Origin: Candidatus Micrarchaeota archaeon
Lineage (GTDB): Archaea > Micrarchaeota > Micrarchaeia > Anstonellales > Bilamarchaeaceae
Direction: 5' to 3'
Assembly: GCA_014730115.1 (NCBI GenBank)
Contig: WJIU01000027.1
Span: forward strand, 1 to 56,346
DNA: 56,346 bases
Positions 10,646 through 52,658 of the stretch are shown here, in pieces. The stretch's first letter is position 1, and every line of letters starts with the position of its first letter. Under the pieces are notes generated by a model, which saw nothing but the letters and a program-made list of their open reading frames with translations, ran no database searches and was not told the origin of the DNA. A program made the position numbers and the translations under genes.

Positions 10646-11215
10646 TTGGCAAAGAAACCCGAATTTGTTATCACCAACATGGTTGCTTCGGCATCCCTTG
10701 GTCTGGAACTAGACCTCTATGCCCTTGCAAGCAAGATACCGGAAATAGAATATGAGCCGGAGCAGTTCCCGGGTGCAATCCTGAAATACACCGAGCCAAA
10801 GGCTTCGCTGCTTCTTTTCAAAAACGGCAAAGTGGTCTGTGTAGGGTGCAAGAAAAGGGAAACCATAGAGAAGGTAATCCAGAAGACAATCAAAAAGCTC
10901 ACCCCCTACGCAAGGAAAATCACCAAGACCAAAAAGCCCAAAATTGAGATTACCAACATCGTTGCTTCCGCAAGCCTGAACATGGAGCTGGACCTTTACA
11001 AGATTGCATACAAAATCAAGGATGTGGAATACGAGCCGGAGCAGTTCCCCGGTGCCATCCTGAAATTTAAGGAGCCCAAGGCTTCCCTTCTGCTTTTCAA
11101 AAACGGCAAAGTCATCTGTGCCGGCGCCAAGAATGAGAAGGAAATCCGGAAGGCGCTGAACAAGGCAAAAAAGATGCTTGCGCCGTACGCCGAAAAGGCA
11201 CGGAGGTCAAAGTGA
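10646..11215 (+). CDS. tbp: TATA-box binding protein
   Basis: Two direct repeats, each with ITNxVASASLGxELDLYxxA...EYEPEQFPGAILK...ASLLLFKNGKVxCxG. TTG start lies 5 nt after GGTGG, and TTTATAAA lies about 35 nt upstream. Confidence 0.95.
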   Translation: MAKKPEFVITNMVASASLGLELDLYALASKIPEIEYEPEQFPGAILKYTEPKASLLLFKNGKVVCVGCKKRETIEKVIQKTIKKLTPYARKITKTKKPKIEITNIVASASLNMELDLYKIAYKIKDVEYEPEQFPGAILKFKEPKASLLLFKNGKVICAGAKNEKEIRKALNKAKKMLAPYAEKARRSK

Positions 11216-11733
11216 GGCTTTTACTGGCAATTGCATGCCTTTCAATTCTGCTTCTTTCCGGTGCACTCGGGCTGGTGACCCCCCAGCAGTGCGACCTGAA
11301 CCCTGAGCTTGACAGGGATTCAGAAAGAATGAACTGCTATCATAATGCAGCAATTACCTATGCCTATTTGAATAACAGGGACAGGGCCTCCGAAACCTGC
11401 CTGAACATATGGCTTATTTTCGGTGCGGGCGCTCCCAATTCCAACAGCGACATCGTAACCAAGGCGGAGATGACCGCCAACAACTGCTTTTACGACATTG
11501 CACTTATACTGAAGGACCCCCCTGTTTGCGCAAACATCCAGCAGAGGAGGGACAATGCGGTGAATACCAGGCTTTTCGGAGAAGCAGTAAGCCAGGAGCG
11601 CTGCGACCGGGAAACAAGGCGGCTGGCCCGGATAGACCCGGAAAGGTATCACCAGCCGGGGGAAGACAACCTGTGCAATGCGCTGTTTATTCTTCCCCTG
11701 CTTGTCCTGGCGGTCTTTATCCGAGGTCCATGA
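11212..11733 (+). CDS. Hypothetical secreted/membrane-anchored Cys-rich protein
   Basis: It has an N-terminal signal (LLLAIACLSILLLSGALG), 8 Cys, and a C-terminal hydrophobic helix (LFILPLLVLAVFI). I recognise no family. Confidence 0.55.
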   Translation: MRLLLAIACLSILLLSGALGLVTPQQCDLNPELDRDSERMNCYHNAAITYAYLNNRDRASETCLNIWLIFGAGAPNSNSDIVTKAEMTANNCFYDIALILKDPPVCANIQQRRDNAVNTRLFGEAVSQERCDRETRRLARIDPERYHQPGEDNLCNALFILPLLVLAVFIRGP

Positions 11734-20671: not shown

Positions 20672-20681
20672 GTCATCACCT

Positions 20682-26263: not shown

Positions 26264-26363
26264 CGGGCCCGGAGGGATTCGAACCCCCAACCTAGTGGTT
26301 TCTCCAGCAATCAGGAGAAGGCTTCCGAAGCCACTCGCCCTGTCCAGGTTAGGCCACGGGCCC
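26264..26363 (-). tRNA. tRNA-Arg (anticodon TCG) with a 25-nt canonical 37/38 intron (26300-26324)
   Basis: Acceptor GGGCCCG/CGGGCCC, anticodon stem AGTGG/CCACT, loop CTTCGG|...|A. The BHB helix is CUUC:GGAG, with bulges GG|A and AA|A. T loop is TTCGAAT. Confidence 0.8.
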
Positions 26364-33281: not shown

Positions 33282-33412
33282 TGCCGCAGGCCTGATTTGA
33301 ACAAGCGACCCCTCCGTATCTGATAGGAGTAAATTCCGTGGGAATCTTCAGCTTCACCGATTCATTTTTTTCAAAAGGAATCTGGAGTGCTCTCCCACTG
33401 AGCTACTGCGGC
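33282..33412 (-). tRNA. tRNA-Phe (anticodon GAA) with two introns: 31 nt at 30/31 (33353-33383) and 28 nt at 37/38 (33318-33345)
   Basis: Exons are GCCGCAGTAGCTCAGTGGGAGAGCACTCC | GCTGAAG | ACGGAGGGGTCGCTTGTTCAAATCAGGCCTGCGGCA. Spliced, they give a 72-nt cloverleaf with stem CTCCG/CGGAG and loop CTGAAGA. Both junctions sit in 3-nt bulges flanking 4-bp helices. Confidence 0.7.
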
Positions 33413-35788: not shown

Positions 35789-36346
35789 ATGGCTGCGCCT
35801 GTGTATGGAGAAGGAAGGGAAAGGCGGTCCACGACAGTGCAGGACCTGCAGAGGCTCCTCCGGGAGCTGCCCAATATGGACCTGACATCCCAGGAAAGAG
35901 ACCAGATAATCGAGATGCTCAATGATGCACTTAATCAGCTGCGGGCTCCGCAGCAAAGAGAAGCACCTCAGCCCCGCAGGGGCACTCCCAAGGAGCTCAG
36001 GCCCAGAAGGCTGGAAACAGAATTTACCTACAGGATAGAGTTTGGCGGAAGACAATACGATGTTACTATGAGGCTTCCAAACCCCAATCTTACCAGTGAG
36101 GACCAGGAGGCGATAAGAAGCGGCAGAATCGATGCCGGAAGAATGAGCCGGCTGCTGCTTGAAAACGCGCTTGAAAATCCTTCCTATGCAGATGTGAGGA
36201 TGGCCGGCAAAAGCGCGGAGGCAAGGAACTTCAACAGCCGGGAGCCCAACGCCCAGCTGGACCTCTTCAGGGATGCATTTCTCCGCCAGGCCAGAAGCAC
36301 TCCGGAAGGGGGAGAAGGAGGCATAAGGGTTTCGCTTTCAAGGTGA
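35789..36346 (+). CDS. Hypothetical Arg/Glu-rich protein A (paralogue-like of the next gene)
   Basis: 185 aa. It shares the motif RRxETxxxYxIxFGGRQYDVxM with the downstream ORF. I recognise no family. Confidence 0.55.
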   Translation: MAAPVYGEGRERRSTTVQDLQRLLRELPNMDLTSQERDQIIEMLNDALNQLRAPQQREAPQPRRGTPKELRPRRLETEFTYRIEFGGRQYDVTMRLPNPNLTSEDQEAIRSGRIDAGRMSRLLLENALENPSYADVRMAGKSAEARNFNSREPNAQLDLFRDAFLRQARSTPEGGEGGIRVSLSR

Positions 36347-36350
36347 TATT

Positions 36351-36941
36351 ATGGCAAGAGCAAGAAAAAGAAGATCAGGAGAAGACCTGATGGTGGAAAG
36401 GCTTACATCGGGTGGCCGCTACACTGAAGAACAGGCAAGGGAATTTGTCAGGGCACTGGACGTTCTGATGAGGGGAAGAAACCCGGTAGTTGATTCCCAG
36501 CGCATGGCGAACGACCTGACCACGCTGACCGACCGCTGGGCAGGCATGATTGAAAACGGAGAATTAAATGCAAGAAGCGTTTCCCAGCTTGAAGAAGATG
36601 ACGTGGGCCTGCTCTTTCGCGGGGTTCTTCTGGAAAGGCCGGAGGTTACGGTTGATGTATACGAGCCCCAGCCTTCCCGCAGGGAAACACACCGCTACAC
36701 AGTGGCAGTCGGCGACAGGGAATTTGACGTTGAGCTTGCAAATGAGCTTCCGGGAGGGGGCGGAATCAGAACCCCGAGGACCGGCCGCCCAAGGGAGCTT
36801 TATGAAATGCTGGTCAGCAACCCCGAGGGAGTAATTGCAATTACAGAAGGGGGGAATGTTGTTGACAAAGGCGAATTCGGCAGCGTCTACCGGGAAACGT
36901 TCCGGACAAGCCCTGAGACCATTTCAATCTCAAGCGCCTGA
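36351..36941 (+). CDS. Hypothetical Arg/Glu-rich protein B
   Basis: 196 aa, starting 5 nt after the previous stop. It carries the motif SRRETHRYTVAVGDREFDVEL. Confidence 0.55.
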   Translation: MARARKRRSGEDLMVERLTSGGRYTEEQAREFVRALDVLMRGRNPVVDSQRMANDLTTLTDRWAGMIENGELNARSVSQLEEDDVGLLFRGVLLERPEVTVDVYEPQPSRRETHRYTVAVGDREFDVELANELPGGGGIRTPRTGRPRELYEMLVSNPEGVIAITEGGNVVDKGEFGSVYRETFRTSPETISISSA

Positions 36942-39000: not shown

Positions 39001-39126
39001 AATCTTTCCTGTTTATATTTAGGTTCTGCAATCTTATACCAAGCAGGGGCCGCCAAGAATTGAACAAATTCAAAATTGGCAACCCTGTCCTGAGGTATTT
39101 CTTCAGGAAAAACAGTTCACGCCCAT

Positions 39127-39210
39127 GCAGGGGTCGCCAAGTGGTCAAAGGCGCCAGGTTCAGGGCCTGGTCGGTTAGTCCGTTCGAGAGTTCGAATCTC
39201 TTCCCCTGCA
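39127..39210 (+). tRNA. tRNA-Leu (anticodon CAG), no intron
   Basis: Acceptor GCAGGGG/CCCCTGC, anticodon arm CCAGG-TTCAGGG-CCTGG, long variable arm, T loop TTCGAAT, discriminator A. Confidence 0.9.
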
Positions 39211-39559
39211 TTAAACTTTTCTTGGGGCCTGCCCAGGTAAAAGTTTAACCAAACTTTCTGAGGCCTGCGAGCCAGCAGGGTTTTCCTAACTGTTTGTTTT
39301 CTTTCTATCTGAAAATCTGCACTGGATTTTCCGGCTGAACCTCTTGGCGGAAAGTTAAGAACTTATATTACATTTTTAAACACTATTTATACAATACTAT
39401 TGTAATGGGTTTTGATGTTTTGTGATTTTTCCATGCATTTTTAACCTCACGGGTGGGCAAAAAGTTTGTGGAAAATGGAAAACAATGGTTTATAATTGTT
39501 ATGTTTTAAATAGTATACTGGAGTGTTAATAAAATCAGCATTACTACGAGGATGGGTTT

Positions 39560-42500
39560 ATGGGAGGTTCACCGTTGAGATATACAAAAAAACCAGGCAA
39601 AAATAGAGAACATTTAAATTCTGATTCTGGTAGATGTTTTGGTAGCCGGCTGAGGGGTTTCTTCAGGGGCGCAATGCTTTATTCGGTATTGACATCTACC
39701 GCAATGGGTGCTTATATGGTTCCGGGTGTAAGAGAAGCAGCTGCAGAGGAAAGACAGAGGGACGTAAGGCCTTTACAGGCCATAAGGGACACGCTTGTGG
39801 AACAGCTTGGTGCTGTCCGGTCAAGGATGCAGGAAATGGAAAGGCAGGGCTTTCCGGCCAGTGTGGACTGGTCAGACCCGACCATGGGCCCGCTGCTGCA
39901 GACTTTGCGCCAGCTTGACCAGCAGCTGAGGCCGTTCAACGACGGCCAGGAAGTAATCCCGTTATCAGGCTCCAGCGACGAGCAGAGGTTCAGGTCGCTG
40001 AACCGCTGGCTTGGAAGGGACCAGGGCTCTCCCCTGGGTGAAGATGCACTCAGGCAGCTTGAAATGAGGGTAACGCTTGCATTTGGTCTTGTTTCTTCTG
40101 ATGCTGCTGCATCCCAGCTTTCAGCTGTCCTGGCAGGAAGGACTCCCGAAGAGCAGCCTGCACCTGCTGAAGCAGAGGCTGAGGAAGCCGCTCCTGTTTT
40201 TGACGAATCAAGAAGGGCATACTACACCGGGCTTATGAACCAGCTGGATGTTATAGCCGGCCATGCCAGAAGAAGGCAGGACCGGAGGGCTGCCGCCAGG
40301 CTTCGCGACAGGCTTCGCGAGCAGCTGGAAAATGATTCGCCTGACTCCAGCGCCCTGGAAACCATTGACCAGGGCCGTGAAAGGAGAGGCCGGCGCGTAG
40401 GAGGCGCTTCCCGCCTTATAGCCCGCGGATATGAAGAAGCCCAGCAAAGGGCCGACCGCGCAAGGGTCAGGGAAGAAACAAGGGCACATGAAGAGGCAGT
40501 GGCAAGGGCCAACCAGGAAAGGGAAGAGGCCCGGGCCGGCGGGGAGGAGCTTGCAGCTTCCGAAACCCGCCCGCTTCTGGAAGGCCTGCAGGGCATGAGA
40601 GAGCAGCACCGGGATTTGGTCAATAATCTTATTAATCTGCTTAACAACAGCTACCGGCTTGGGGAAGGCCAGAGGGAGAGGCTGATAAGAGCCCCTGGAG
40701 AAGAAGGTGAGGCGGGGCTTCTCTGGCAGGCCCGGGACGCACTCCAGCAGGGAAATGACAGGCGCGCCAGCGAGCTTTATGCACAGGCCAACCAGCTATA
40801 CACTTCTCAGCAGACCCTTTACCGGGCAATGCTCAGTGAATTTGTTGTTCCTGTTGCACGTGAAGCTGCAGGCACTGCTTCCGACGTTCCCGGAATTGAA
40901 CCGCTGCAGTCCCGCATGAGGGAGCGGGCCGAGGCGGCCCAGGGACATCTTGACGAAGGCGACATGTCTTTCTTCTATACCTGGAACCTTTATCTTGCGA
41001 CCTGGTCCGAGTACCAGGCAATGAGCGTGCTTGAGGACTTGTGGCAGGAGGCAGACCGGCTTGTGCCTGAGGGCCATGGGTCCAGAGGCCGGCTGGAAGA
41101 GAATCTTGGCTCAGTGCTGCAGGCAATCTCAACCCGTGGCTACAATCCTCTTCAGAGGTATGAGGACAGTGACCCCATAGTTGTGGGGCTTTTAAGGGAT
41201 TTCAGAAGTGCCACCGGCAATCCTTCTGCCACCAGGGAAGAGCTGGAGCAGGCAATCAGAAGCAATCCCGACTGGAGCATCCAGCTTGCACTTTATGATT
41301 TATACAGGAGGACAACCCATGCTGCCTACGAGCCTTCCGGAGGCTTAAGCACCGAGCGCGAACAGAACCCTGCAAGGTACCACCTTGCCAGAATGAGAAC
41401 AGCCAGGGCACTTTTCAGGGATGACTACCAGCACTATTATTATGCAGAGTGGACCAATGTTGACAACAGATTCACAGACGGCCGTGCATTCCTTGACCAG
41501 ACGGTGCAGCTTGCCAGGGAATCAGGCATGGAGCAGAACGACCCGCTTATAGAATACTGCGAGCAGCGTCTGCAGATGCATCCTGATGCAGGCGGAATGA
41601 GCGATGAGCAGAAAAGCCAGACCGGAGACATGTTCTATGAGATGGCCATGGGCCTGGCGGCAATCAGGGAAGCGGAGCTCTGGATTTCCGATGCAAACAG
41701 CCAGCTGAGAGGGGCACATGTTGATGATGCGACCATGGACCGTGCAAGGGCACTGCTCCAGCGGGCAAGGCTGGAATTTGAAGAAAACTTTTCGGTCATG
41801 ACTCCCGGCACGGACAGCAACAGGGTAAGTTCGGAAGAAAGGAGCGTTGCATGGGACTTCACCGGCCTGCCCGGAGAGATATCAGAGAGCTATGCTGTCC
41901 CCCCTATGTTGCATATGAACTTTCCCAGGGAAATTGCTGATGATGTGATACATCTCGTGGCACCGCAGGCCTATCATGAGCTCGAGACATATTCCACCAA
42001 CGACACCGGCAACCTGATTCTTGAAGGCAGGGTGGATTACCTGGTTGCAAGATCCGAAGCAGAGAACCAGGTCGGGGAGCAGGTAACTGACGAAATAGAA
42101 AGAATGGTTCAGCTGAGAGAAATTGATGAGAGGCTTGAGGTCAGGAGCACCGTTGTTTCCACAAGGGATGATGGCCTGGAAAGGGGCACGGTATCAGAAT
42201 ACATGTTCCTTAGGACTATTACCGCCCTTAGAGACCAGGGGAACTTCGGGGCCCCCACGCTTGCCGACCGCCAGCGCGCCTGGGCAAGGGCCATGGAGGT
42301 TCTCAGCCCTGAGATTGGAAGGGCAACTGTTCTTGGCAGTGACAGGCAGGGAATAAGGCAGGTGCGCACTACCCCCTCCTACCCGAGGCTTACAGTTGGA
42401 GTGGCCGACTTTGTACATCAGGATGCAAGAGCAGCATATCCGCAGGGGGAGCTTTATACAGAAATGCGCAGGCAGGTATTCCTTCACACCGATGATAACG

Positions 42501-43651
42501 TTACGCCGCTGCTCAGGCATCTTGGCGTTGACCCTGCAAGGGGCCAGGGCATGACAGACATGGACCCGTCCATGACCGGAGTGAGAGGATTCCTCAGGTC
42601 CATGGACCAGGTTGCCAGCGGGTACAGCGCAGGCAACCCGCAGACATCCCTGCAGTCCGGAAACGAGGTGCTGGTAGGCGTTGCGACAGAAAGGCTGGAA
42701 GAGCTCAACCGCAGGCTCAGCGAGCGCAGGGAGGTTGACGGCGTCTCAATCAGCGAGCTTTCAAGGTCCACCGACCCCCGCTCATATATAGTAAGAAGGG
42801 CAGTTGCAGTAAGGGACCGGGAGGCAAGAAGGATAGCTGAATACCGCACGTCCCTGGGCCAGGACCTTGTGGAGCCGGGCACCAACCCCAGGCTGAGCAT
42901 ACTGGCCCTGGAGAATGCCATTCACAGTCTTTCGCATGATGTAGGGCCCATAAGAGAGCCTCCTGAGCAGGTAAGGTTCTTTTCCCAGGGAACTGATTTG
43001 GAAGAAGACATAGTCAACAGCATAAGGGTTGCAAGGGCAAGGATTGATGTCCAGGCAGACCCGACCGAAGGGCTTGCAGTTTCCCTTGAGCAGTATGAAC
43101 GCGCCAACGGCCGCCAGACCCTGCTCTACAACTGGGTATGGTGGGTTGACCTGGGAAGGGACGACTGGTTCCTGCTCAACCCCAACTGGGATACTTATCT
43201 GGGCTCGGGGCCCTGCAACGGATGGGTGCTTGACCCTGAGTCAGGAATGCCGGTAAACCCGGAAACAAGGCTGCCCAGCAGCCCCAGGACAGGAGAGTCG
43301 GTGCCCGGCGCTGAGCCGGTGGAGCTGCCCCAGCAGTTCATTGCAAGGCTCATGGAAATGCCGGAAGGAAGCGGACGCTACGCCGCGGTGCGTGTAAGGC
43401 CGCCGGGTCGCGAGACCGGTGCAGAGGCAACAATGACTGTGGAATGGGAGCCGGTACGGCTTTCAAACGGCAGGCTGGACATTCTGTTCCGTGAGCTTCC
43501 GGGAGAGGGAGGCACACACACCCTCCAGCCGCTGCGGGCGGACATGACTGCAGATGTGGTCAGGGACACCTGCACCAGGACAGTCAGGCCCGAGAGCGTA
43601 AGGCCGGTATCCGGAGATGCTGCGGCAAGGGCAATCGTGCGTCCAAGATAA
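39560..43651 (+). CDS. Giant (1363 aa) Arg/Glu/Ala-rich, predominantly helical protein of unknown function with one weakly hydrophobic N-terminal segment
   Basis: It is an uninterrupted 4.1-kb ORF, and the antisense ORFs are all 145 aa or shorter. It is preceded by a ~350-nt AT-rich spacer with TATA-like boxes. I recognise no motif. Confidence 0.75.
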   Translation: MGGSPLRYTKKPGKNREHLNSDSGRCFGSRLRGFFRGAMLYSVLTSTAMGAYMVPGVREAAAEERQRDVRPLQAIRDTLVEQLGAVRSRMQEMERQGFPASVDWSDPTMGPLLQTLRQLDQQLRPFNDGQEVIPLSGSSDEQRFRSLNRWLGRDQGSPLGEDALRQLEMRVTLAFGLVSSDAAASQLSAVLAGRTPEEQPAPAEAEAEEAAPVFDESRRAYYTGLMNQLDVIAGHARRRQDRRAAARLRDRLREQLENDSPDSSALETIDQGRERRGRRVGGASRLIARGYEEAQQRADRARVREETRAHEEAVARANQEREEARAGGEELAASETRPLLEGLQGMREQHRDLVNNLINLLNNSYRLGEGQRERLIRAPGEEGEAGLLWQARDALQQGNDRRASELYAQANQLYTSQQTLYRAMLSEFVVPVAREAAGTASDVPGIEPLQSRMRERAEAAQGHLDEGDMSFFYTWNLYLATWSEYQAMSVLEDLWQEADRLVPEGHGSRGRLEENLGSVLQAISTRGYNPLQRYEDSDPIVVGLLRDFRSATGNPSATREELEQAIRSNPDWSIQLALYDLYRRTTHAAYEPSGGLSTEREQNPARYHLARMRTARALFRDDYQHYYYAEWTNVDNRFTDGRAFLDQTVQLARESGMEQNDPLIEYCEQRLQMHPDAGGMSDEQKSQTGDMFYEMAMGLAAIREAELWISDANSQLRGAHVDDATMDRARALLQRARLEFEENFSVMTPGTDSNRVSSEERSVAWDFTGLPGEISESYAVPPMLHMNFPREIADDVIHLVAPQAYHELETYSTNDTGNLILEGRVDYLVARSEAENQVGEQVTDEIERMVQLREIDERLEVRSTVVSTRDDGLERGTVSEYMFLRTITALRDQGNFGAPTLADRQRAWARAMEVLSPEIGRATVLGSDRQGIRQVRTTPSYPRLTVGVADFVHQDARAAYPQGELYTEMRRQVFLHTDDNVTPLLRHLGVDPARGQGMTDMDPSMTGVRGFLRSMDQVASGYSAGNPQTSLQSGNEVLVGVATERLEELNRRLSERREVDGVSISELSRSTDPRSYIVRRAVAVRDREARRIAEYRTSLGQDLVEPGTNPRLSILALENAIHSLSHDVGPIREPPEQVRFFSQGTDLEEDIVNSIRVARARIDVQADPTEGLAVSLEQYERANGRQTLLYNWVWWVDLGRDDWFLLNPNWDTYLGSGPCNGWVLDPESGMPVNPETRLPSSPRTGESVPGAEPVELPQQFIARLMEMPEGSGRYAAVRVRPPGRETGAEATMTVEWEPVRLSNGRLDILFRELPGEGGTHTLQPLRADMTADVVRDTCTRTVRPESVRPVSGDAAARAIVRPR

Positions 43652-43684
43652 CATTCATTCAATGGGATAATACAAGGAGGTGAA

Positions 43685-43876
43685 ATGGGTGAAAACCAAG
43701 AGAACGAACAGCTTGAAACAGCTGGATACTACACAGGAAAGAGCCACCGGAGCTTGCAAAAAGTTTTCCAAATGGCTGCTTGCCTCAGCTGTAGGTCTGG
43801 GCTCAGTTGTCGCGTCACCGGGGCAATTTTTAAACAATGCCGCCCCAATACCATTAGCATTCACTTTATATGGTGA
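43685..43876 (+). CDS. Small ORF between the giant gene and the next gene; reading frame ambiguous
   Basis: AAGGAGGTGA lies at 43674-43683. ATG 43685 gives a 63-aa Cys-rich peptide whose TGA lies inside the GGTGA SD of the next gene. The alternative GTG 43689 frame gives a signal-anchor-like peptide (KKFSKWLLASAVGLGSVVASPG) ending at 43880. Confidence 0.3.
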   Translation: MGENQENEQLETAGYYTGKSHRSLQKVFQMAACLSCRSGLSCRVTGAIFKQCRPNTISIHFIW

Positions 43877-43882
43877 CTAAAA

Positions 43883-46132
43883 ATGGCGCAGGCGCGACGG
43901 GTACCGGAAGCAGAAAGAGAAGCAGGAGTTTATACTAACGAGCAGCTTATGCGTATTGTAGATGCAACAATGGGACCAGCTGACAGTGTGGAGCATCCCC
44001 GGAATGCCCCTACACCAAGGGCTTCGGCAGAGGACGCTTTGCAGATGTGGCAGGTCCTTCAGCTCCTGGAAAGGGAGCAGCCGCCTGCAGAAGGCACTGA
44101 CGACCGCAGGCTCTATGACCGCGCAGCGAGCGTGCTCAGCGAAGGGTCGGGACAGGTTGAAGATGCAAGGTACGCGCTCCACATGGCAATCCGCGATGTC
44201 CTGAGAATGACTTCGGAGAGGGTCCAGAGCCCGAATGATGTGGGGGGCCTTGCCGAGCCGCTTAGGAACATGCTGTTTACCATTCAGGACAGGGCCAACA
44301 GCCTGGAGCGTGACACTTATCTGGCCTACCGCCCGCCGGCAGTCAGCAATGCAATAGCGAATATCATTGATACCATTGGAGGCGGAAGGCCCGGGGAAGA
44401 GGGCCTTCAGAGAACCAGGCCGGGCGAGCCCGAGCCGTTCCAGGTAAGGACCAGGGAACTGCGGGCCTTTGAAATGCCGATAAGGGACATAGGCAGAATC
44501 CACCTTATTGAATCAGCCGGCGAGCTTCCCTATCTCGCGGCCGCAGGAGAGGTTTCTGCCGAGCTTGAATCCATTTTCGGAGGAAGCCACGAGGCTGCGC
44601 AGCAGGGCGCTGATGCCCTTGCCCGCGCCATTGAGATGCGGGCAAACGGGGAGGCCCAGCACATGGGGTGCAACGAGCTCCGGGAAGCGCTTGAGCAGGT
44701 TTCCCATCCCCAGCTGGTAAACAATGATATGTTCCGGTCTGCACTGGAGGATTTAAGGAACAACCAGAGGGATGCTGCAATTGACAAGCTTCTCAGCCTT
44801 ACTGACACTCCCCTGAACGCGCTTATTGATACTGCGAACAATGTAGAGATAGTCAGGGTGGACCAGAGGGCCCTTGTAGTGTATCACGCCGGAGTGACCA
44901 TGAGATTCGACTTCGGCGGCAACATGGAGGCGTTTACCAGATATCTCAGAACAGAGGACGAAAGGAACTTTGAGCCAAGGCTCCTCTACTTCGGTCTGGG
45001 CCTTTATTATGAGATGCTTCTCATCTCCGGCTGGAGGCGGGAAGGCATGCTGGACGTAGAGACCGGAGAGATGACCGAACAAGGTGAAAGAACAAGAATC
45101 CGGGGAACCGGACATGCCGCCACCACTACCCTTTCCCTTGGAGTGGGAAGCTCCATCCGGGGAGAGCCGGTGGAGTGGGTTGTCCACTGCAACTTCGGCT
45201 ACAGGTACAGGGAGCTTTCCCGGGAAGATGTTGGCGTTGAGACATCCTATGGAACGGAAAGGACTCTTCCTGAAGGGCAAAGAAGGGTGCACGAGCCTTA
45301 CATCGGATTCTGGGGCCTTGAGGTAAGGATGCCCGGGCGTGGCTCCCGCAGGCCGGTTGCAAGAATCATGCCCGCAAGAATGGGGCTGGGATTTGTTGGA
45401 AGGCCGGACAACGTGCTGGGATACGCAACCTGGAGGCAGAACCCTGTCCAGGAAGGGGGCTTTACCCTTCAGCTGGAGGAAACTGCACAGATTTCATATC
45501 TTCTCAGGCAGCTTTACCTGACTGGAGAGATTAATGCAAGGCTCATCCACCAGTGGGAGAACGGAATGGCGCTTATGGGCGGCCCCGGAATAAGGGTCGA
45601 CGTAAGGGGAATGGACATTGAAGGCCAGCCTACTGTTGCTTCCATTGAGTCATACGGGGAACTGGCGTACAGGCCCCTGCCCTGGCTTACTGTCTCTGCC
45701 CGCGGAGGATACTTTGTGGAAAGGGGAGGCCCTGAATGGAACCGCATTCCCGACAATTACTTCCTGGGAGGAAACGTTGCCATGGACTTCGGCCAGGTGG
45801 GCGGAAGGATTCCTCTGAGCACCACTCCGGTGAGGATGGAAGTCACCGAGCCGGTAAGAAGCGATTTCCTGTGGGCGGCAAGATGGGCAGATGAAGCCGC
45901 CCCTGAGCAGCTTTCAGGGGATGAGGCCAGCAGGATGGCAACCGACCTTGCAAACCTGATTGAAAGGCAGGCCGGTACTGACACCTGGAGCTTTGGAGGC
46001 TCGGACCGGTACAATACCGCGCTGGAGCACCTGAGGGCAGGAAGGCTGCGCGAGGGCATTGACGCCCTGAGGCGGATTGACGCATTCCGCGAGCTGGAGC
46101 AGCGCCTGGAAGTCAGGGAAGAGGAAAGGTGA
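43883..46132 (+). CDS. Hypothetical 749-aa protein: helical N- and C-regions flanking a ~320-aa region with a beta-barrel-like alternating strand pattern
   Basis: GGTGA lies 6 nt before the ATG. There is no signal peptide. The central strands are rich in G/Y/F/W/R (LYFGLGLYYEML, TTTLSLGVGSSI, WVVHCNFGYRY, YIGFWGLEVRM, LTVSARGGYFVE, YFLGGNVAMDF). Confidence 0.75.
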   Translation: MAQARRVPEAEREAGVYTNEQLMRIVDATMGPADSVEHPRNAPTPRASAEDALQMWQVLQLLEREQPPAEGTDDRRLYDRAASVLSEGSGQVEDARYALHMAIRDVLRMTSERVQSPNDVGGLAEPLRNMLFTIQDRANSLERDTYLAYRPPAVSNAIANIIDTIGGGRPGEEGLQRTRPGEPEPFQVRTRELRAFEMPIRDIGRIHLIESAGELPYLAAAGEVSAELESIFGGSHEAAQQGADALARAIEMRANGEAQHMGCNELREALEQVSHPQLVNNDMFRSALEDLRNNQRDAAIDKLLSLTDTPLNALIDTANNVEIVRVDQRALVVYHAGVTMRFDFGGNMEAFTRYLRTEDERNFEPRLLYFGLGLYYEMLLISGWRREGMLDVETGEMTEQGERTRIRGTGHAATTTLSLGVGSSIRGEPVEWVVHCNFGYRYRELSREDVGVETSYGTERTLPEGQRRVHEPYIGFWGLEVRMPGRGSRRPVARIMPARMGLGFVGRPDNVLGYATWRQNPVQEGGFTLQLEETAQISYLLRQLYLTGEINARLIHQWENGMALMGGPGIRVDVRGMDIEGQPTVASIESYGELAYRPLPWLTVSARGGYFVERGGPEWNRIPDNYFLGGNVAMDFGQVGGRIPLSTTPVRMEVTEPVRSDFLWAARWADEAAPEQLSGDEASRMATDLANLIERQAGTDTWSFGGSDRYNTALEHLRAGRLREGIDALRRIDAFRELEQRLEVREEER

Positions 46133-46137
46133 ATCAA

Positions 46138-48267
46138 GTGAAATCAAAAATTCTTTTTTCTGTTCTGCTTTTGTTTTCTGCAGCATTTGCGTGGTCCACT
46201 GATACCTATTTTACATACCCCCTTGTTTCGGGATATTATGTTGACAGCGACCTGACCCTGACAACAGACTTTACACTGTCTCTTGTTTCAGGGGAAGTGG
46301 CAGAGGGAAATCCCTCCAATCTTCAGACCGGGGATGTGGTCTGCTCAGGGGCAGTGCTGAGGGCAACCCCAACCTATAATGCCAAATGGGCCACCTCGGA
46401 TTTTTCAGCAAAGTCTCTTTACCCCTCATGCGCGGCAATATACTGCCCGTCCATGATTTCCGGAGGCCCGGTCCAGAACGATAATGACGTTTCCTGGCTT
46501 TCCTCCACTGTTTTCAATGAGCACGATGAGTGGGGAGACGATTACGGGCTCCTCTTCGGCTGGGATGCGGTGTCCCAAAACATGTATGATGACCTTACCC
46601 CGCTTGTAAACCAGCCTGTAACCTACAAGAACGTTACCGGGGAATACCCCGACAAAAGGGCCGGCGTGGGCATCTACTGCAAGGGGGACATGGAGATTGT
46701 CGATGGAACTTCAGTTAAGTCCTCCAATGAGATGCCAAGCACCGGCAGTGCTGATTTTGCAGTTACCTCAACAGGAACCCATGGGATTTCCACCCGGCTT
46801 TCCGACACCGAATGCATCGCGGCAATAGTGAAGCACCCTCTGGACATATCCAGCCATCCCGGATTCTTCAGGCTCTATTACTTCAGCACCGGGCAGCCAT
46901 CAATACCCTCTGCAGTTGGTACTGAGACTATTTCAATTACGGTTCAGGAATCGGGAGGCGCCTGCAACTTCCACGAGACTGATGTGGAGGCCAGCAGCTC
47001 CCTCAGTGATGAGGACCTTATCATGATTAAGGTCACCTTTGAGAACGGTGGTGACCCCATACAGATTACTGATGTGTCCAGCTCCAGTGCGGATTTCACG
47101 GTGTCAGAATTTCCGACGCTGCTCTGCGACATACTCGGCTTTCCGCCGTCCTTCTGCCCTGCATCCAACGGCTTTGACGAGGATGTCTCCTCAGGAGGAA
47201 CCCATGACGTTTATGTCCTGGTGGAAAGAAATGTCGGGGCAAGCGGAGGCACGGTGCTGACCTTTGATGCCCAGACCGTTTCAGGGAGCTGCGGAGGCGC
47301 AGCAACCTGCTCGGAGGATGTTGACCTCGGGGATTCTGTCCCGATATTATGTGAGATAGACCCTGATGAGCTTACCTATGGCACACTGGAAGTGGCTGAA
47401 TTCCTTGTGTACTGCGAGAACCTTGCCGGAGACGGCATATCCTGTGTCGGCGACGACTGGTACTTCAATGACGGAATATCCGGAGGCTTTGTGGAAAAGG
47501 ACAATACTCATGCATGGGCATATCCCACTTCGTCCCCGGGCTCCAGCGGAACGCTCAACTATGAATCAGGAATAGCCCACTGCCTTTCAGACATTGACGT
47601 TGTGTCCCCCGGAGATTCACCCGGAGACTATGAATGCGAGCTTGTGCCTTCCAGTGCCGAGTTGGAGACCGGAGACACCCAGGCGTTTGTGCTTAACTGC
47701 TTCCACGAGGGCTCGGCTTCAGAGCCGGACAGCGTGGACTATGACCTCATAGATGGCGTCGACGGTTCTCTCAGCGGGGAGAGCACCAGCGGAGTTGACT
47801 TTGAAGCGGGCTCGGACAGCACCGGACAGCTGAGGGCATTCGCCTACTGGAGCATCCCCGGAGACGACCCGATAATGGGCGCAGTTGCCCTTGCTGACAT
47901 TACCATCGGGGCAGGGGGAAACGAAACCAACGAGACCGGCGGAGATGACGATGACTACTATGACGACGGCTCCAGCATGCACTGCAAAATCGGAGGAGGG
48001 CCGCTGAATCCATTCCCCGGCTCCAGCGGATGGCTTACTGTTATGTGCGGACCTGATTATGATATTCCCTGCGCCACCGCGGACTGGGATGCAGAGCCGC
48101 CTGGAATAGCATCAGTAAGCGGGGACGAGAACGGAGCGTCCTATACCATCAACGGCGAGCCCCAGGAGTCAGGAAAAATCTGGGCAACCGTAACCTATGA
48201 TGGAGAATCAGGGGACTGCTTCCTGCCATTCCAGATTGGGCTCCCGGACTGCTGGGAGTTCACGTAA
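46138..48267 (+). CDS. Secreted acidic, Cys-rich protein of unknown function (~709 aa)
   Basis: GTG 46138 lies 5 nt after AAGGTGA, which overlaps the upstream stop. The signal peptide is MKSKILFSVLLLFSAAFA. The protein has many Cys, a D/E/G/S-rich composition, a DDDDYYDD run, and no C-terminal anchor. Confidence 0.75.
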   Translation: MKSKILFSVLLLFSAAFAWSTDTYFTYPLVSGYYVDSDLTLTTDFTLSLVSGEVAEGNPSNLQTGDVVCSGAVLRATPTYNAKWATSDFSAKSLYPSCAAIYCPSMISGGPVQNDNDVSWLSSTVFNEHDEWGDDYGLLFGWDAVSQNMYDDLTPLVNQPVTYKNVTGEYPDKRAGVGIYCKGDMEIVDGTSVKSSNEMPSTGSADFAVTSTGTHGISTRLSDTECIAAIVKHPLDISSHPGFFRLYYFSTGQPSIPSAVGTETISITVQESGGACNFHETDVEASSSLSDEDLIMIKVTFENGGDPIQITDVSSSSADFTVSEFPTLLCDILGFPPSFCPASNGFDEDVSSGGTHDVYVLVERNVGASGGTVLTFDAQTVSGSCGGAATCSEDVDLGDSVPILCEIDPDELTYGTLEVAEFLVYCENLAGDGISCVGDDWYFNDGISGGFVEKDNTHAWAYPTSSPGSSGTLNYESGIAHCLSDIDVVSPGDSPGDYECELVPSSAELETGDTQAFVLNCFHEGSASEPDSVDYDLIDGVDGSLSGESTSGVDFEAGSDSTGQLRAFAYWSIPGDDPIMGAVALADITIGAGGNETNETGGDDDDYYDDGSSMHCKIGGGPLNPFPGSSGWLTVMCGPDYDIPCATADWDAEPPGIASVSGDENGASYTINGEPQESGKIWATVTYDGESGDCFLPFQIGLPDCWEFT

Positions 48268-51563: not shown

Positions 51564-51859
51564 TTGCCGAGATTTGTGTCGGGGCCGGCATCCTGATAAT
51601 TCTGGTTGTGGCAGTGTATCTCATCTTCTTTTCCAAGGCCTTTGAATACAGGAAAAAAACCTTCAAGGGCACCACTTCGCTCACTGTCTATGCAAAAAAG
51701 AATCTCAAAAAGGTATCAGTAAAGGCAGATGACATATCTTTTGAAAGAAAAAGAATAAGGAAAGGCCAGACTGTGGAGTTTGATTTCCCTTCCACCAAGA
51801 AGCCTGCCAGGCTTATTGTGGAGGAGGAATCCGGTCATGCTCAGACCGTCGACGTTTGA
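51560..51859 (+). CDS. Hypothetical small membrane-anchored protein
   Basis: The start overlaps the PIN stop by 4 nt. It has one N-terminal TM segment (ICVGAGILIILVVAVYLIFF). I recognise no family. Confidence 0.45.
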   Translation: MIAEICVGAGILIILVVAVYLIFFSKAFEYRKKTFKGTTSLTVYAKKNLKKVSVKADDISFERKRIRKGQTVEFDFPSTKKPARLIVEEESGHAQTVDV

Positions 51860-52658
51860 GCTTTTTGCCTTTGCCCTTCATCTTCTGATATGAGAACCAC
51901 AGCAGCCCCCCTGCTATTCCAAGAGGGAGCAGGAAGCCTGCCAGTGCAACCAGGATGGTTATCGCCGCAGCAAGCGCGCCGAAGAATATCCCGCCGAGTC
52001 CTTCCAGAGGCACTATCAGCTGCTCTGCAGATGGCTTGTCCTCATAGAGCATGATGCGTATTGTGGAGCGCTCAACCCTTGAAATCAGCCTCTGCTCCTG
52101 CTGTTTCAAAAGCTCCAGCTCTGTCTCCACCCTGGAAATCTCTCTTTCCACTTCAAGCAGGTCCTCCACATCCTCGCTGAGATTGTATAGTTCATATAGT
52201 CTCTCAAGCTCCAGCTCCCTGCTGTCGATGCGCACCTCAAGCTCCTGGTACTGGGCGGTAACGTCCTCCAGCTCTACGGACATGTCCTTGACCTCTCCCA
52301 GCTGCTTGAGGTCTTCGTTAATGTCGTCAAATTTCTTGGGCTCTACTTTTGCAGTGACTGTGTACTGCTTCCGGAAGTCATACTCCTTGAAATCGACATT
52401 GCTTATGTCCGCCCCTTCCGACTCAAGAAGGTCCGTCATCTCCCCGTACCTGGATTCAAGGCTCCCATCGGTTACTTTGATGGAAATGTAACTTTCTTTG
52501 GTTATATACTCGTTTTCTGAGGCATAATAACCAGCCAATGCTTTCTCGCCGTAATCTGCGGTCCGGGGCTCGGCTGCAAGTTCAGGCTGCCCCACGCATC
52601 CAAGACCCAAAAGCATCAGAAGCATAATCAGACCATATGTTCGCAAGGAAATCACCAT
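51813..52658 (-). CDS. DUF4349-like secreted/membrane protein
   Basis: It has a signal plus Cys (LLMLLGLGCVG), a coiled-coil middle (DVTAQYQELEVRIDSRELELERL...), and two C-terminal TM helices, which is the DUF4349 architecture. Confidence 0.6.
   Translation of the reverse strand: MVISLRTYGLIMLLMLLGLGCVGQPELAAEPRTADYGEKALAGYYASENEYITKESYISIKVTDGSLESRYGEMTDLLESEGADISNVDFKEYDFRKQYTVTAKVEPKKFDDINEDLKQLGEVKDMSVELEDVTAQYQELEVRIDSRELELERLYELYNLSEDVEDLLEVEREISRVETELELLKQQEQRLISRVERSTIRIMLYEDKPSAEQLIVPLEGLGGIFFGALAAAITILVALAGFLLPLGIAGGLLWFSYQKMKGKGKKLKRRRSEHDRIPPPQ

Follow-up and report, generated by a model that had tools for sequence, protein, structure and literature searches.

Background

Among outer-membrane β-barrel proteins, OmpG is a 14-strand monomeric porin, and BcsC joins a TPR domain to a 16-strand barrel. 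Composite surface envelopes are known from the Sulfolobales, whose two-component S-layer consists of a SlaA canopy and a SlaB stalk, and from Deinococcus, in which the SlpA barrel with its coiled coil is found together with the Ig-like HPI lattice. In Tat 'hitchhiker' export, a subunit without a signal crosses together with a partner that bears one, as with hydrogenase HybO/HybC and DmsA/DmsB. Nanohaloarchaeota, which are DPANN symbionts, possess giant surface proteins termed SPEARE proteins. Finally, lysine deserts are lysine-free regions that escape ubiquitin or Pup tagging (PMC10665810, PMC10169902).

We describe here an operon that bears comparison with each of these systems, found in a 56,346-nucleotide stretch of a Candidatus Micrarchaeota archaeon genome (contig WJIU01000027.1), hereafter the window. 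We consider it likely that its products make up an exported envelope complex and, a little less firmly, that the operon is Micrarchaeota-specific and that its four products are all exported, most likely to form one cell-envelope or surface complex. Its novelty lies in orphan exported proteins that include a predicted porin-like barrel, and in proteins that are nearly free of lysine in half of the lineages.

Results and discussion

A conserved operon of orphan genes

Four tightly coupled genes, ORF1, the small ORF2, ORF3 and ORF4, follow one another on the plus strand (Table 1). A GAGG lies 8 nt 5' of the ORF1 ATG; the ORF2 stop TAA (43878-43880) ends 2 nt before the ORF3 ATG, with GGTGA just 5'; and the TGA ending ORF3 and the GTG starting ORF4 share bases in GTGA. 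We surveyed 23 distinct Micrarchaeota genomes with enough sequence, that of the window included. In all 23, ORF1 is followed on the same strand by one or two copies of ORF3 and then by ORF4, an order kept in Ca. Bilamarchaeum despite different flanking genes. Homologs of the three large ORFs are collinear in every relative examined, which excludes chance ORFs. The genes are real, translationally coupled and passed on as one unit.

Table 1. Features of the operon and its upstream region (window coordinates)
Feature	Coordinates	Strand	Basis
tRNA-Leu(CAG)	39126-39211		
AT-rich leader, probable promoter region	39212..39559	+	348 nt, 35% GC, sequence read directly
ORF1, orphan giant protein, 1363 aa	39560..43651	+	ORF read; homologs at matching operon position in 22 other genomes
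ORF2 (corrected frame), 63 aa from GTG 43689 or 66 aa from GTG 43680	43689..43880	+	Conserved at ORF1-ORF3 junction
ORF3, 749 aa	43883..46132	+	AF2 model m7197cd018d3b, pLDDT 88.6, pTM 0.67
ORF3 predicted porin-like β-barrel region, aa 320-635	44840..45787	+	DSSP of AF2 model, dyad pattern, Foldseek
ORF4, 712 aa from GTG 46129 or 709 aa from GTG 46138	46129..48267	+	AF2 model md604752d6590, pLDDT 88.9

None of the products matched a known family in Pfam, NCBIfam, PHROGs, PADLOC, PDB sequence profiles or Foldseek, and PHROGs, PADLOC and viral folds yielded nothing indicative of a viral or defence origin. According to the record titles and source names of all matches, homologs of the operon are confined to Micrarchaeota/Micrarchaeia. 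The original prediction, made from the DNA alone, had proposed a translationally coupled four-ORF operon with no recognisable motif, forming a novel multi-component envelope or cell-interaction module. The coupling is borne out by the tight junctions, between ORF2 and ORF3 as well as at the ORF4 start. The genes co-occur strictly, in 23/23 genomes. The lack of motifs holds up in the database searches: neither sequence nor Foldseek comparison tied any ORF to an unrelated well-known family. Orphan status, co-occurrence and extracytoplasmic signals together support the module, whose function is one that we infer.

The spacer downstream of tRNA-Leu(CAG) is AT-rich, about 350 nt long and supplied with TATA-like boxes, as had been predicted: one such box, TTTATAAT, lies near 39489-39496, and a consensus scan gave a match at 39469-39496. 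This leader is probably the promoter region of the operon. The tRNA gene itself lies upstream in only 3 of the 16 relatives checked and is thus a mere neighbour. A beta-CASP gene adjoins the operon in 12 relatives, 11 of these loci having been fetched through the beta-CASP gene and the twelfth being L013. Housekeeping genes surround the operon.

ORF4, a predicted array of Ig-like domains

ORF4 begins with a signal peptide (…LLLFSAAFA↓WSTD). Its model comprises, in order, a large N-terminal β domain, tandem Ig-like β-sandwich domains, an acidic disordered linker (model residues 593-607) and a C-terminal β domain. With 21 Cys (2.9%) and a net charge of -92, it agrees with the Cys-rich, acidic, signal-peptide protein of about 709 aa first described. 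The family counts 45 members, all from Micrarchaeota and none bearing a protein name, in which 14 cysteines are invariant and 5 near-invariant. From sequence and model together, ORF4 is a predicted signal-peptide protein of Ig-like domains with conserved cysteines.

Foldseek matches ORF4 to titin Ig chains, cadherins and, among its best hits, the bacterial S-layer proteins SbsB, Sap, EA1 and SbsC, the first three being multi-Ig proteins. The operon may encode an alternative or accessory S-layer-type scaffold of the cell wall, with ORF4 as lattice or canopy, ORF1 as stalk and ORF3 as basal connector; it would then serve neither host contact nor transport specifically. As in two-component S-layers, a secreted multi-β-sandwich protein (ORF4) is coupled with a long helical one (ORF1), and Deinococcus SlpA is among the weak fold matches of ORF3. 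The operon is also universal in the sampled genomes, has a long AT-rich leader and stands in housekeeping surroundings, and archaeal S-layer proteins are commonly Ig-like arrays anchored by co-expressed partners (bioRxiv 10.1101/2024.05.28.596244). However, no sequence homology relates the operon to S-layer systems, and ORF4 aligns to S-layer proteins with low TM-scores (0.10-0.18). The canonical Micrarchaeota S-layer protein is of a different, PF05123/MSTP-like family (bioRxiv 10.1101/2021.04.28.441871) and almost devoid of sulfur amino acids (bioRxiv 10.1101/2021.04.28.441871; 10.1101/2024.05.28.596244), whereas ORF4 is Cys-rich and gave no PF05123/MSTP-like match in Pfam. Moreover, ORF1 carries an N-terminal signal-like segment instead of a C-terminal anchor, with no C-terminal transmembrane helix such as SlaB-type stalks have, and no known archaeal S-layer includes a barrel protein. 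We therefore regard a purely structural scaffold as improbable.

A predicted porin-like barrel in ORF3

Our best reading is an exported envelope or host-contact complex, specific to the lineage and centred on a predicted barrel in ORF3. ORF3 had originally been described as β-rich. In its model, helical domains (aa 19-165 and 226-318) precede, and a C-terminal helical domain (aa 656-748) follows, a β region in which DSSP recognizes about 13 antiparallel strands of 7-29 residues. The alternation of hydrophobic and polar residues along these strands is seen in the window's protein and throughout its family, which comprises 64 representative clusters out of 1.84 billion. The first four, at 18-29 residues, exceed a membrane span; those of the second half measure 11-15 residues, except one of 7. 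A porin-like meander barrel set between helical domains is predicted with high confidence.

Outer-membrane barrels (BcsC, OmpG, porins, Tom40, BamA) dominate the Foldseek matches of ORF3, and one family member weakly matches the outer-membrane barrel family Phenol_MetA_deg. The model shares with BcsC and OmpG an up-down antiparallel arrangement of amphipathic strands with a helical repeat-like domain, and with outer-membrane proteins the strand lengths of its second half and the 18% aromatics of its hydrophobic face. However, none of the sequence or fold scores is significant (all E >= 0.013; TM at most 0.47 on the target, for OmpG). ORF3 further differs in lacking the C-terminal aromatic β-signal: its last strand leads into a helical domain of 100 aa or into a charged tail, and its signal peptide is absent or provided in trans. 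The odd strand count (13) and the large helical domain after the last strand argue against a classical outer-membrane protein. The host belongs to the archaea, and no outer membrane is known for it; we know of no porin-like β-barrel fold and no BAM-type insertion machinery in archaea. Micrarchaeum harzensis has a single membrane and an S-layer (bioRxiv 10.1101/2021.04.28.441871). That the ORF3 barrel is a membrane-embedded pore appears rather unlikely on the model.

The β region might instead enclose a hydrophobic cavity for host lipids, ORF1 and ORF4 bridging to the host in a machine for lipid scavenging or transfer. DPANN archaea are generally unable to make lipids and depend on those of their host. 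Large lipid-transfer proteins (microsomal triglyceride transfer protein, vitellogenin and lipovitellin) come within the Foldseek top 20 of ORF3, one strand face is hydrophobic, and strands of up to 25-29 residues go beyond what a bilayer needs. These matches are weak, however (probability 0.05-0.12, TM-scores 0.07-0.09), and are outscored by outer-membrane barrels; the two strand faces are conserved alike (entropy 2.63 versus 2.47, p = 0.18), which lends no support to a strongly conserved hydrophobic interior. We give lipid transfer little credence.

Export signals and the small gene ORF2

ORF3 of the window lacks a signal peptide. Across genomes, three mutually exclusive architectures are observed: ORF2 with a signal-less ORF3 behind it (11 genomes, the window and 10 others), a pair of ORF3 copies of which the first, ORF3a, bears a signal and the second, ORF3b, does not (8 genomes), and a lone ORF3 to which a signal is fused (4-5 genomes). 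In every operon, one signal-like element, and no more, stands at ORF3 or directly ahead of it. Canonical cleavable signal peptides occur on ORF3 homologs in about 12 genomes; those with AxA↓Q sites are found in about 9 of 50 family members and in all ORF3a paralogs. In L003 and L005, an ORF2-like segment is joined directly to the MAQAQ of ORF3.

ORF2 displays a Lys-rich, basic n-region, a hydrophobic helix WLLASAVGLGSVVA, the motif SPGQF and a conserved C-tail, APIPLAFT. Independent gene callers annotated it in L012 and L013, as 55-aa and 52-aa genes. The frame first proposed for the small ORF, 43685-43876 (MGENQ...), was wrong: its protein is not conserved, and the neighbouring frame is. ORF2 looks like a detached signal or anchor peptide, and its fixed 'VAS-P' motif hints at an anchor that stays uncleaved, not at a signal that is removed. 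Whether it acts in trans on ORF3 is to us nearly an even question, leaning slightly to the negative; we infer such a hitchhiking or tethering role from gene architecture only. As in Tat hitchhiking, a partner with a signal, ORF2 or ORF3a, always stands ahead of an ORF3 that lacks one, and several signals of the family combine RR/KR-x-F-hydrophobic motifs, weakly hydrophobic Gly/Ala-rich h-regions and AxA sites. Unlike in that system, the carrier can be a 63-aa ORF2 with only about 20 exported residues, and the twin arginine is not conserved: it is missing from the window's ORF2 (KKFSKW) and inconsistent across the family.

The size and the Arg/Glu-rich nature of ORF1 were correctly predicted (R 11.7%, E 9.3%); its helical character is a crude, poorly calibrated secondary-structure estimate, by which the body is helix-biased and the C-terminal ~180 aa lean to β. 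Neither Pfam nor PDB gave a match. The strand-like C-terminal tail is conserved (consensus TPVxIVxP; AIVRPR in the window). At the other end, a long conserved n-region (M.G..LR...LNS) precedes a weakly hydrophobic segment (aa 38-54) and EAAA↓EER; the family shares the n-region motif, an h-region and AxA↓Q, the latter following the hydrophobic stretch in about 16 of the 22 homologs. The N-terminus is thus conserved and, as judged from sequence, signal-peptide-like.

Could ORF1 and ORF3 stay in the cytoplasm, for instance as a cytoskeletal or regulatory complex, with ORF4 alone exported and ORF2 an unrelated small membrane protein? Both proteins are rich in helix and strongly charged; the hydrophobic segment in ORF1 is a weak one, with a Kyte-Doolittle maximum of 1.24, and the window's ORF3 is signal-less. 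Against this stand the cleavable signals of orthologous ORF3 proteins, the ORF2-ORF3 fusions, the conserved AxA↓Q of ORF1 and the distribution of lysines: those remaining in ORF1, ORF2 and ORF4 are concentrated in cytoplasm-facing n-regions, including 3 of the 4 in ORF1, in its presumed cleaved n-region. This pattern fits export, and a cytoplasmic location seems very unlikely to us. An extracytoplasmic location is supported by the signal and cysteines of ORF4, the signal-like N-terminus of ORF1 and the fused ORF3 signals elsewhere.

In the exported complex that we favour, ORF1 and ORF4 would cross the membrane by their own signal peptides. With its conserved C-terminal strand, APIPLAFT, ORF2 would bind ORF3, which has no signal, and ferry it across, tether it, or both; elsewhere, a signal-bearing ORF3a paralog or a fused signal would take over this task. 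At the envelope, solutes or lipids may pass through the ORF3 barrel; the long, helical ORF1 may provide the scaffold, and ORF4, exposed and stabilised by disulfides, may be the adhesive or lattice part. Because Micrarchaeota are host-dependent episymbionts, such a complex would probably serve host contact or nutrient uptake; a role in host interaction as such we propose tentatively, as a possibility on the lesser side of even. Like SPEARE proteins, the operon proteins are large, lineage-specific, fast-evolving, exported and from a host-dependent DPANN archaeon. However, they are much smaller, have no protease, lectin or nuclease-type Pfam matches, and belong to an unrelated type of operon, which includes a barrel protein; no homology backs the comparison with giant surface proteins of DPANN archaea that was initially drawn.

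Base composition and lysine depletion

The block was rightly seen as richer in GC and Arg than its neighbours (GC 0.55-0.59 versus about 0.50 in the flanks). The excess lies at codon positions 1 and 2 (0.63/0.47 versus 0.54/0.38), and GC3 (0.60-0.63) equals the background (0.62), so that the bias results from amino-acid composition, with Arg for Lys plus Ala and Gly, and not from foreign DNA. A horizontally acquired island, provirus or mobile-element cargo inserted beside tRNA-Leu, as the adjacent tRNA gene, raised GC and exclusively orphan genes might suggest, is close to refuted by the background-level GC3, the place beside the beta-CASP gene in 12 relatives, the rarity of the tRNA neighbour, and searches that found no integrase, repeat, PHROGs or viral-fold match.

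ORF1 and ORF3 are nearly lysine-free (4 Lys in 1363 aa and 1 in 749 aa). The K-poor state is found in 12 genomes and the K-normal state in 11, ORF1 and ORF3 being perfectly coupled across lineages, and it occurs in one clade and one distant lineage. Arg largely compensates: Lys plus Arg amounts to 11.1 versus 13.4% in ORF1 and 9.4 versus 10.7% in ORF3. As in lysine deserts, lysine removal is extreme and evolutionarily maintained; here, however, it concerns exported archaeal proteins, spans whole sequences of 749-1363 aa, is limited to the one clade and the distant lineage and is coupled between operon partners. The almost complete exchange of Lys for Arg in the exported parts may be a one-clade adaptation of the extracellular complex. 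It may guard against Lys-directed chemistry, proteolysis or tagging or, alternatively, permit synthesis under lysine scarcity. Two further signal-peptide proteins in the window are K-poor, whereas cytoplasmic enzymes contain 6-10% Lys. A DUF4349 signal-peptide protein in the window is not K-poor, which indicates that lysine avoidance is restricted to part of the exoproteome.

A conserved operon in Micrarchaeota

Profile HMMs of ORF1, ORF3 and ORF4 were built and run across all fetched loci. ORF1, one or two copies of ORF3 and then ORF4 follow one another on a single strand in 23/23 distinct genomes with enough sequence. In Ca. Bilamarchaeum dharawalense, the operon is present between other flanking genes than elsewhere, and the cluster is therefore inherited as a unit. 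The homologs come exclusively from sources whose names or record titles read Micrarchaeota, Micrarchaeia, 'ainarchaeum' or 'Bilamarchaeum'; each is unnamed and annotated as 'hypothetical'. Searched exhaustively with HMMER, 1.84 billion cluster representatives yielded only 64 relatives of ORF3, nearly all 600-800 aa long; the word-index search (single-sequence and profile) that returned the query alone reflects a limit of that method. ORF4 is the best conserved component (28-55% identity), and ORF3 and ORF1 evolve faster (roughly 17-35%).

None of the four proteins, family members included, has a meaningful match in Pfam, NCBIfam, PHROGs or PADLOC, and searching the PDB by sequence profile with the families of ORF1 and ORF3 gave only noise. 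Sub-threshold matches in the family libraries were to DUF1409, T2SSI and, in one of ten ORF3 relatives, the outer-membrane barrel Pfam family Phenol_MetA_deg (E 0.0048). Profile-profile comparison found no relationship between ORF1 and ORF3.

The tight gene junctions claimed in the original prediction are borne out: a GGTGA Shine-Dalgarno motif lies directly upstream of the ORF3 ATG, and the ORF3 stop overlaps the ORF4 start in GTGA. In one relative (L021, 8044-9984 and 9998-12114), the second ORF3 copy is found in three pieces and ORF4 in two, which reflects either gene decay or assembly frameshift errors.

Coordinates of the operon, of the domains in the ORF3 model and of tRNA genes
Feature	Position	Strand	Size	Description
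tRNA-Leu(CAG)	39126-39211
Leader	directly after tRNA-Leu(CAG)		348 nt	35% GC, TATA-like boxes
ORF1	39560-43651	+	1363 aa
ORF2, conserved frame	GTG 43689 (or 43680) to 43880	+		Lys-rich N-terminus, helix, SPGQF, APIPLAFT tail
ORF3	43883-46132	+	749 aa
ORF4	46129 or 46138 to 48267	+	712 or 709 aa
ORF3 helical domains	residues 19-165 and 226-318			AF2 model
ORF3 beta region	residues 320-635			AF2 model; about 13 antiparallel strands of 7-29 residues
ORF3 C-terminal helical domain	residues 656-748			AF2 model
tRNA genes (Rfam)	26264-26363 and 33282-33412	-	100 and 131 nt	presumably intron-bearing

ORF2, a possible detached signal peptide

A small ORF is indeed present at the ORF1-ORF3 junction, as originally predicted; however, the frame first proposed for it (ATG 43685) is not conserved as a protein. 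The conserved frame encodes a hydrophobic helix, WLLASAVGLGSVVA, followed by SPGQF and the tail APIPLAFT. Ten further genomes have this pattern where ORF1 meets ORF3; the ORF2 of locus L012, for example, ends in …VASPGQFINFGAPIPLAFTI. Independent gene callers have called the ORF in two of these genomes (55 aa and 52 aa). The DNA at 43840-43885, which spans the ORF2 tail and the ORF3 ribosome-binding site (…CCAATACCATTAGCATTCAC…GGTGACTAAAAATG), is far better conserved than the flanking proteins. Because the DNA itself is conserved there, two frames look 'conserved' (NTISIH and APIPLAFT), and this is probably what misled the first choice of frame.

We observed three mutually exclusive operon architectures. 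In the first, that of the window, ORF2 precedes a signal-less ORF3 starting with MAQxQ (11 genomes). In the second (eight genomes: L001, L014, L015, L016, L018, L019, L021 and L022), ORF2 is absent and ORF3 is duplicated in tandem, always as one signal-bearing and one signal-less copy: ORF3a, which comes first, bears a signal peptide of the classical kind (e.g. …ARRFALAGALGLAVLIGAPGSARA-QEG), and ORF3b, without a signal, comes second. In the third, a single ORF3 carries a fused signal (4-5 genomes). Each operon therefore carries a single signal-like element, either at ORF3 or directly ahead of it. In L003 and L005, an ORF2-like segment is fused in frame to the MAQAQ of ORF3, and fused signals are found in about 9/50 members of the wider ORF3 family. 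A programmed frameshift joining ORF2 to ORF3 was considered and rejected: the offset is -1 in five genomes and +1 in L011, and a separate Shine-Dalgarno motif and ATG serve ORF3.

Most simply, ORF3 would act outside the membrane, with ORF2 as its signal or anchor, made as a separate polypeptide. The hydrophobic helix of ORF2 is followed by a fixed VAS-P motif. Proline at +1 prevents cleavage by signal peptidase I, and ORF2 may therefore stay in the membrane as a tether of ORF3; its conserved tail might then dock onto ORF3 as an extra beta-strand. A signal peptide that is a gene of its own, interchangeable with fused signals, would amount to a natural experiment in protein targeting.

The pairing of ORF2 with ORF3 recalls Tat hitchhikers; a putative complex of signal-bearing and signal-less partners ahead of export draws its support from the mutually exclusive architectures and the L003 and L005 fusions. 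In Tat hitchhiker pairs, the carrier has a twin-arginine motif (S/T-R-R-x-F-L-K), which is inconsistent across the operon homologs: the window has KKFSKW in ORF2 and SRLRGFF in ORF1, and RR/KR-x-F is found in many homologs, not in all. No Tat components were seen among the annotated ORFs of the 56-kb window.

ORF3, a predicted porin-like barrel

An AF2 model of ORF3 was obtained from a 50-sequence alignment (mean pLDDT 88.6, pTM 0.67) and predicts a long region of antiparallel strands between helical domains. The strands alternate between hydrophobic and polar residues, in the window protein as well as averaged over the family; in this dyad pattern, the hydrophobic face has 18% aromatics and the polar face 23% charged residues. 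The difference in conservation between the two faces is not significant (p = 0.18). Foldseek searches with the model gave no significant match (best E 0.013) and the viral structure library gave none to the fold. The non-significant Foldseek list is dominated by membrane barrels, with outer-membrane barrels on top at E of at least 0.013: BcsC, OmpG (TM 0.47 on target), OprP, ScrY, OmpF, MOMP, Tom40, BamA/TamA and TonB-dependent transporters. BcsC, with a TPR domain and a barrel, has the overall layout of the ORF3 model.

Members of the porin/outer-membrane protein class are closed antiparallel meander barrels of even strand number, with an outward hydrophobic belt of about 25 A, aromatic girdles and a polar lumen, a geometry that ORF3 may share. 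In other respects, ORF3 differs from the class. Barrel proteins of that class carry a cleavable N-terminal signal, whereas the ORF3 of the window begins MAQARRVPEAE, with no hydrophobic segment and no signal peptide; signal peptides are confined to some of its homologs and paralogs. The class also has an aromatic C-terminal beta-signal, which ORF3 lacks: its last strand (…NYFLGGNVAMD, then F) precedes the C-terminal helical domain, and in short homologs a charged tail follows the last strand. Finally, ORF3 belongs to no known family by Pfam, NCBIfam or PDB profile.

We know of no established beta-barrel membrane protein in Archaea; the porin-like barrel of ORF3, predicted with confidence, is unusual for this domain of life. 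One recent paper goes no further than a possible distal relative in Altiarchaeales (PMC12228718). ARMAN cells were once read as two-membraned (PMC4243693), a view that came to be contested once an S-layer had been shown (bioRxiv 10.1101/2021.04.28.441871). The ORF3 barrel of Micrarchaeota, conserved, probably exported and predicted with confidence, bears directly on this dispute over one or two membranes.

ORF1 and ORF4

The N-terminus of ORF1, compared in 22 homologs, has a conserved long n-region (M.G..LR…LNS), often with an RR or KR-x-F-L motif, then a weakly hydrophobic Gly/Ala/Thr-rich stretch and an AxA-Q-type motif (EAHA-QES, PAAA-QEQ; EAAA-EER in the window). The elements are arranged as in a cleavable signal peptide, possibly one of the Tat type. 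Arg and Glu are abundant in the body of the protein. A crude Chou-Fasman-type family profile, poorly calibrated (recall 0.18-0.32 on ORF3), gives a weak hint that the body is helix-biased and that the last ~180 residues lean toward beta; a strand-like motif, TPVxIVxP, is conserved at the extreme C-terminus.

ORF4, modeled from a 40-sequence alignment (mean pLDDT 88.9), is predicted to be all-beta: a signal peptide (…LLLFSAAFA-WSTD) precedes a large N-terminal beta domain with strands of roughly 20 residues; Ig-like sandwiches follow in a chain, and beyond them an acidic, disordered linker leads to a final beta domain. Foldseek matches include titin Ig chains, the S-layer proteins SbsB, Sap, EA1 and SbsC, cadherins and RTX adhesins, with E down to 1e-10 and TM-scores of only 0.10-0.18. 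The model shows a surface architecture of the generic 'beads on a string' kind, with no specific family membership. ORF4 is very acidic (net charge -92), with both lysine and arginine scarce. The family has 14 invariant and five nearly invariant cysteines (2.9% Cys in the window protein), which points to disulfides formed outside the cell.

Several homologs of ORF4 are longer, at 890-1131 aa compared with ~700 (L006 1428-4823, L007 12452-15484, L012 9992-13000, L023 9977-12682 and L025 5681-8353), and tblastn gave repeated matches to the same ORF4 segments in L006, L007 and L008. This suggests internal duplication of Ig-like domains.

A coupled loss of lysine

Of the 1363 residues of ORF1, four are lysines, and three of these lie in the n-region that is presumably cleaved off; ORF3 has one lysine in 749 residues, against a window background of 7.0% (binomial P = 5e-37 and 1e-22, respectively). 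Arginine stands at 11-12% in both. Across genomes, the lysine state is bimodal and perfectly coupled between the two proteins: in 12 genomes, lysine does not exceed 1.1% in ORF1 or in any ORF3 copy, and in 11 others it makes up 4-10% of all of them. The beta-CASP nuclease gene beside the operon has 6-8.4% lysine in all genomes, and the cytoplasmic enzymes of the window are not lysine-poor. In the ORF3 family as a whole, 14/50 members are below 1% and about 32/50 lie at 4-8%. In a tree based on ORF4, the lysine-poor genomes form one clade nested among lysine-normal ones, and L007 is a further, distant case; duplication of ORF3, the tandem barrel gene, is found only in the lysine-poor clade. The sum of lysine and arginine is nearly kept (11.1 versus 13.4% in ORF1, 9.4 versus 10.7% in ORF3) and acidic content is the same: lysine has been specifically lost, with arginine mostly in place.

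This pattern fits extracellular ORF1 and ORF3 proteins, and selection acting on exposed proteins in one clade. Lysine deserts, long conserved lysine-free stretches in a proteome of normal lysine content, are known to avoid ubiquitin or Pup tagging (PMC10665810, PMC10169902). ORF1 and ORF3 have such deserts in 12 genomes, and the likeness to those that avoid tagging may be taken as an analogy only. Alternatively, the lysine purge may reflect thrift with a scarce amino acid in proteins needed before host contact.

Lysine content is also unusual in other ORFs of the window. Two signal-peptide proteins are lysine-poor: a NosD-like right-handed beta-helix protein (427-2610, +; K 1.1%, R 1.8%) and a Cys-rich protein of 173 aa (11212-11733, +; K 1.2%, C 4.6%). 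A secreted DUF4349 protein (51813-52658) has normal lysine (6.4%). Two adjacent ORFs of 185 and 196 aa (35789-36346 and 36351-36941, both +) have a composition like that of ORF1 and ORF3 (R 15.1% and K 1.1%; R 12.8% and K 1.0%); they have no signal peptide and no Pfam match, and kinship with ORF1 or ORF3 was rejected, as no similarity to either and no copy in the fetched relatives was found. The low-lysine ORFs at 24953-25618 (+, 1.8%) and 25455-26261 (+, 0.7%) overlap by ~160 nt, so that a start or frame may be incorrect in one or both. At the opposite extreme to the operon proteins, an ORF of 189 aa (10646-11215, +) has 18% lysine.

Proposed function

Attachment to other archaea, on which they rely for nutrients, is the way of life of DPANN archaea such as Micrarchaeota, and we know of essentially no molecules established for this contact or for the transfer of material. 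Our functional statements on the operon are drawn from sequence, predicted structure and comparative genomics, by which its four products are probably parts of one exported envelope or surface complex. In such a complex, the ORF3 barrel would be a conduit or membrane-interacting element and ORF2 its anchor, ORF1 would provide a long scaffold, and ORF4 an exposed adhesive or lattice-like part. The most attractive reading of its role, since Micrarchaeota are host-dependent, is host contact or uptake, which we put forward tentatively and with the balance somewhat against it. The operon offers concrete candidates for contact and transfer, universal in the sampled lineage and with products predicted to be exported.

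The complex could instead be a purely structural, S-layer-like scaffold. The fold class of ORF4 resembles S-layer proteins, and ORF4 shares with the canonical S-layer protein of Micrarchaeota and Archaea, as defined in bioRxiv 10.1101/2021.04.28.441871 and 10.1101/2024.05.28.596244, a signal peptide, an acidic pI and a large multi-beta-sandwich build; these traits are generic, however, and adhesins have them too. The known Micrarchaeota S-layer protein is of the PF05123/MSTP type and not Cys-rich (same two references), and the canonical protein, very abundant and arranged in a 2D lattice, has few sulfur residues, whereas ORF4 is Cys-rich and neither ORF4 nor ORF1 has a Pfam match to S-layer families (PF05123 S_layer_N/MSTP-like) at E <= 1. 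A lipid-transfer device is hinted at weakly by fold, a few large lipid-transfer proteins being present at very low probability in the ORF3 Foldseek list. A cytoplasmic complex of ORF1 and ORF3 is contradicted by the fused signals.

The operon was not assigned to any of the families considered, namely outer-membrane proteins, S-layer proteins, Tat hitchhikers and giant DPANN surface proteins, the last of which have no domains in common with the operon proteins; a porin-plus-scaffold envelope assembly may serve as a working analogue. It joins three oddities: a predicted porin-like barrel, a putative signal peptide encoded by a separate gene and a coupled, bimodal lysine purge. No prior description of the operon, or of a lysine-poor DPANN exoproteome, was found in the searchable literature, and we rate the operon as categorically new in kind. 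We may also speculate, at long odds, that Micrarchaeota have a membrane-inserting, porin-like barrel, the first in Archaea, exported by a signal from a separate gene; that this barrel, the scaffold and the adhesin together make up a conduit, set either in a second layer of the envelope or in the host membrane, that draws metabolites or lipids; and that the lysine purge of one clade evades lysine-directed attack or tagging by the host. If true, a conduit in a second layer would revive the contested 'two-membrane ARMAN' observation.

Genomic setting

The tRNA-Leu gene, originally noted upstream of the operon, adjoins it there in just 3/16 relatives checked and is not a component of it. The block had also been described as GC-richer than its neighbors. 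The excess is present, with GC at codon positions 1 and 2 of 0.63 and 0.47 versus 0.54 and 0.38 in 25 other genes, and it arises from amino-acid composition; GC3 equals background (0.60-0.63 versus 0.62), and the operon is for these reasons not foreign DNA. A mobile island, whether acquired by horizontal transfer or inserted as a mobile element at the tRNA, is contradicted by this GC3, by conserved synteny and by flanks made of housekeeping genes, and no match to an integrase, a repeat, PHROGs or a viral fold indicates a mobile element or provirus.

The window comes from a contig of a Micrarchaeota (DPANN) archaeon. Its archaeal housekeeping genes include those for a PurP-type ATP-grasp protein, XPD and Lhr helicases, RFC and a pyruvate:ferredoxin oxidoreductase, and the adjoining beta-CASP nuclease has 59-76% identity to genes of 11 Micrarchaeota assemblies. 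The two presumably intron-bearing tRNAs found by Rfam in the window are absent from ARAGORN output in bacterial mode, which fits an archaeal genome. The TPP-binding beta subunit of the pyruvate/2-oxoacid:ferredoxin oxidoreductase (18710-20824, -) contains an intein, with Hint/intein splicing and LAGLIDADG homing-endonuclease domains at about residues 70-434 within the enzyme.
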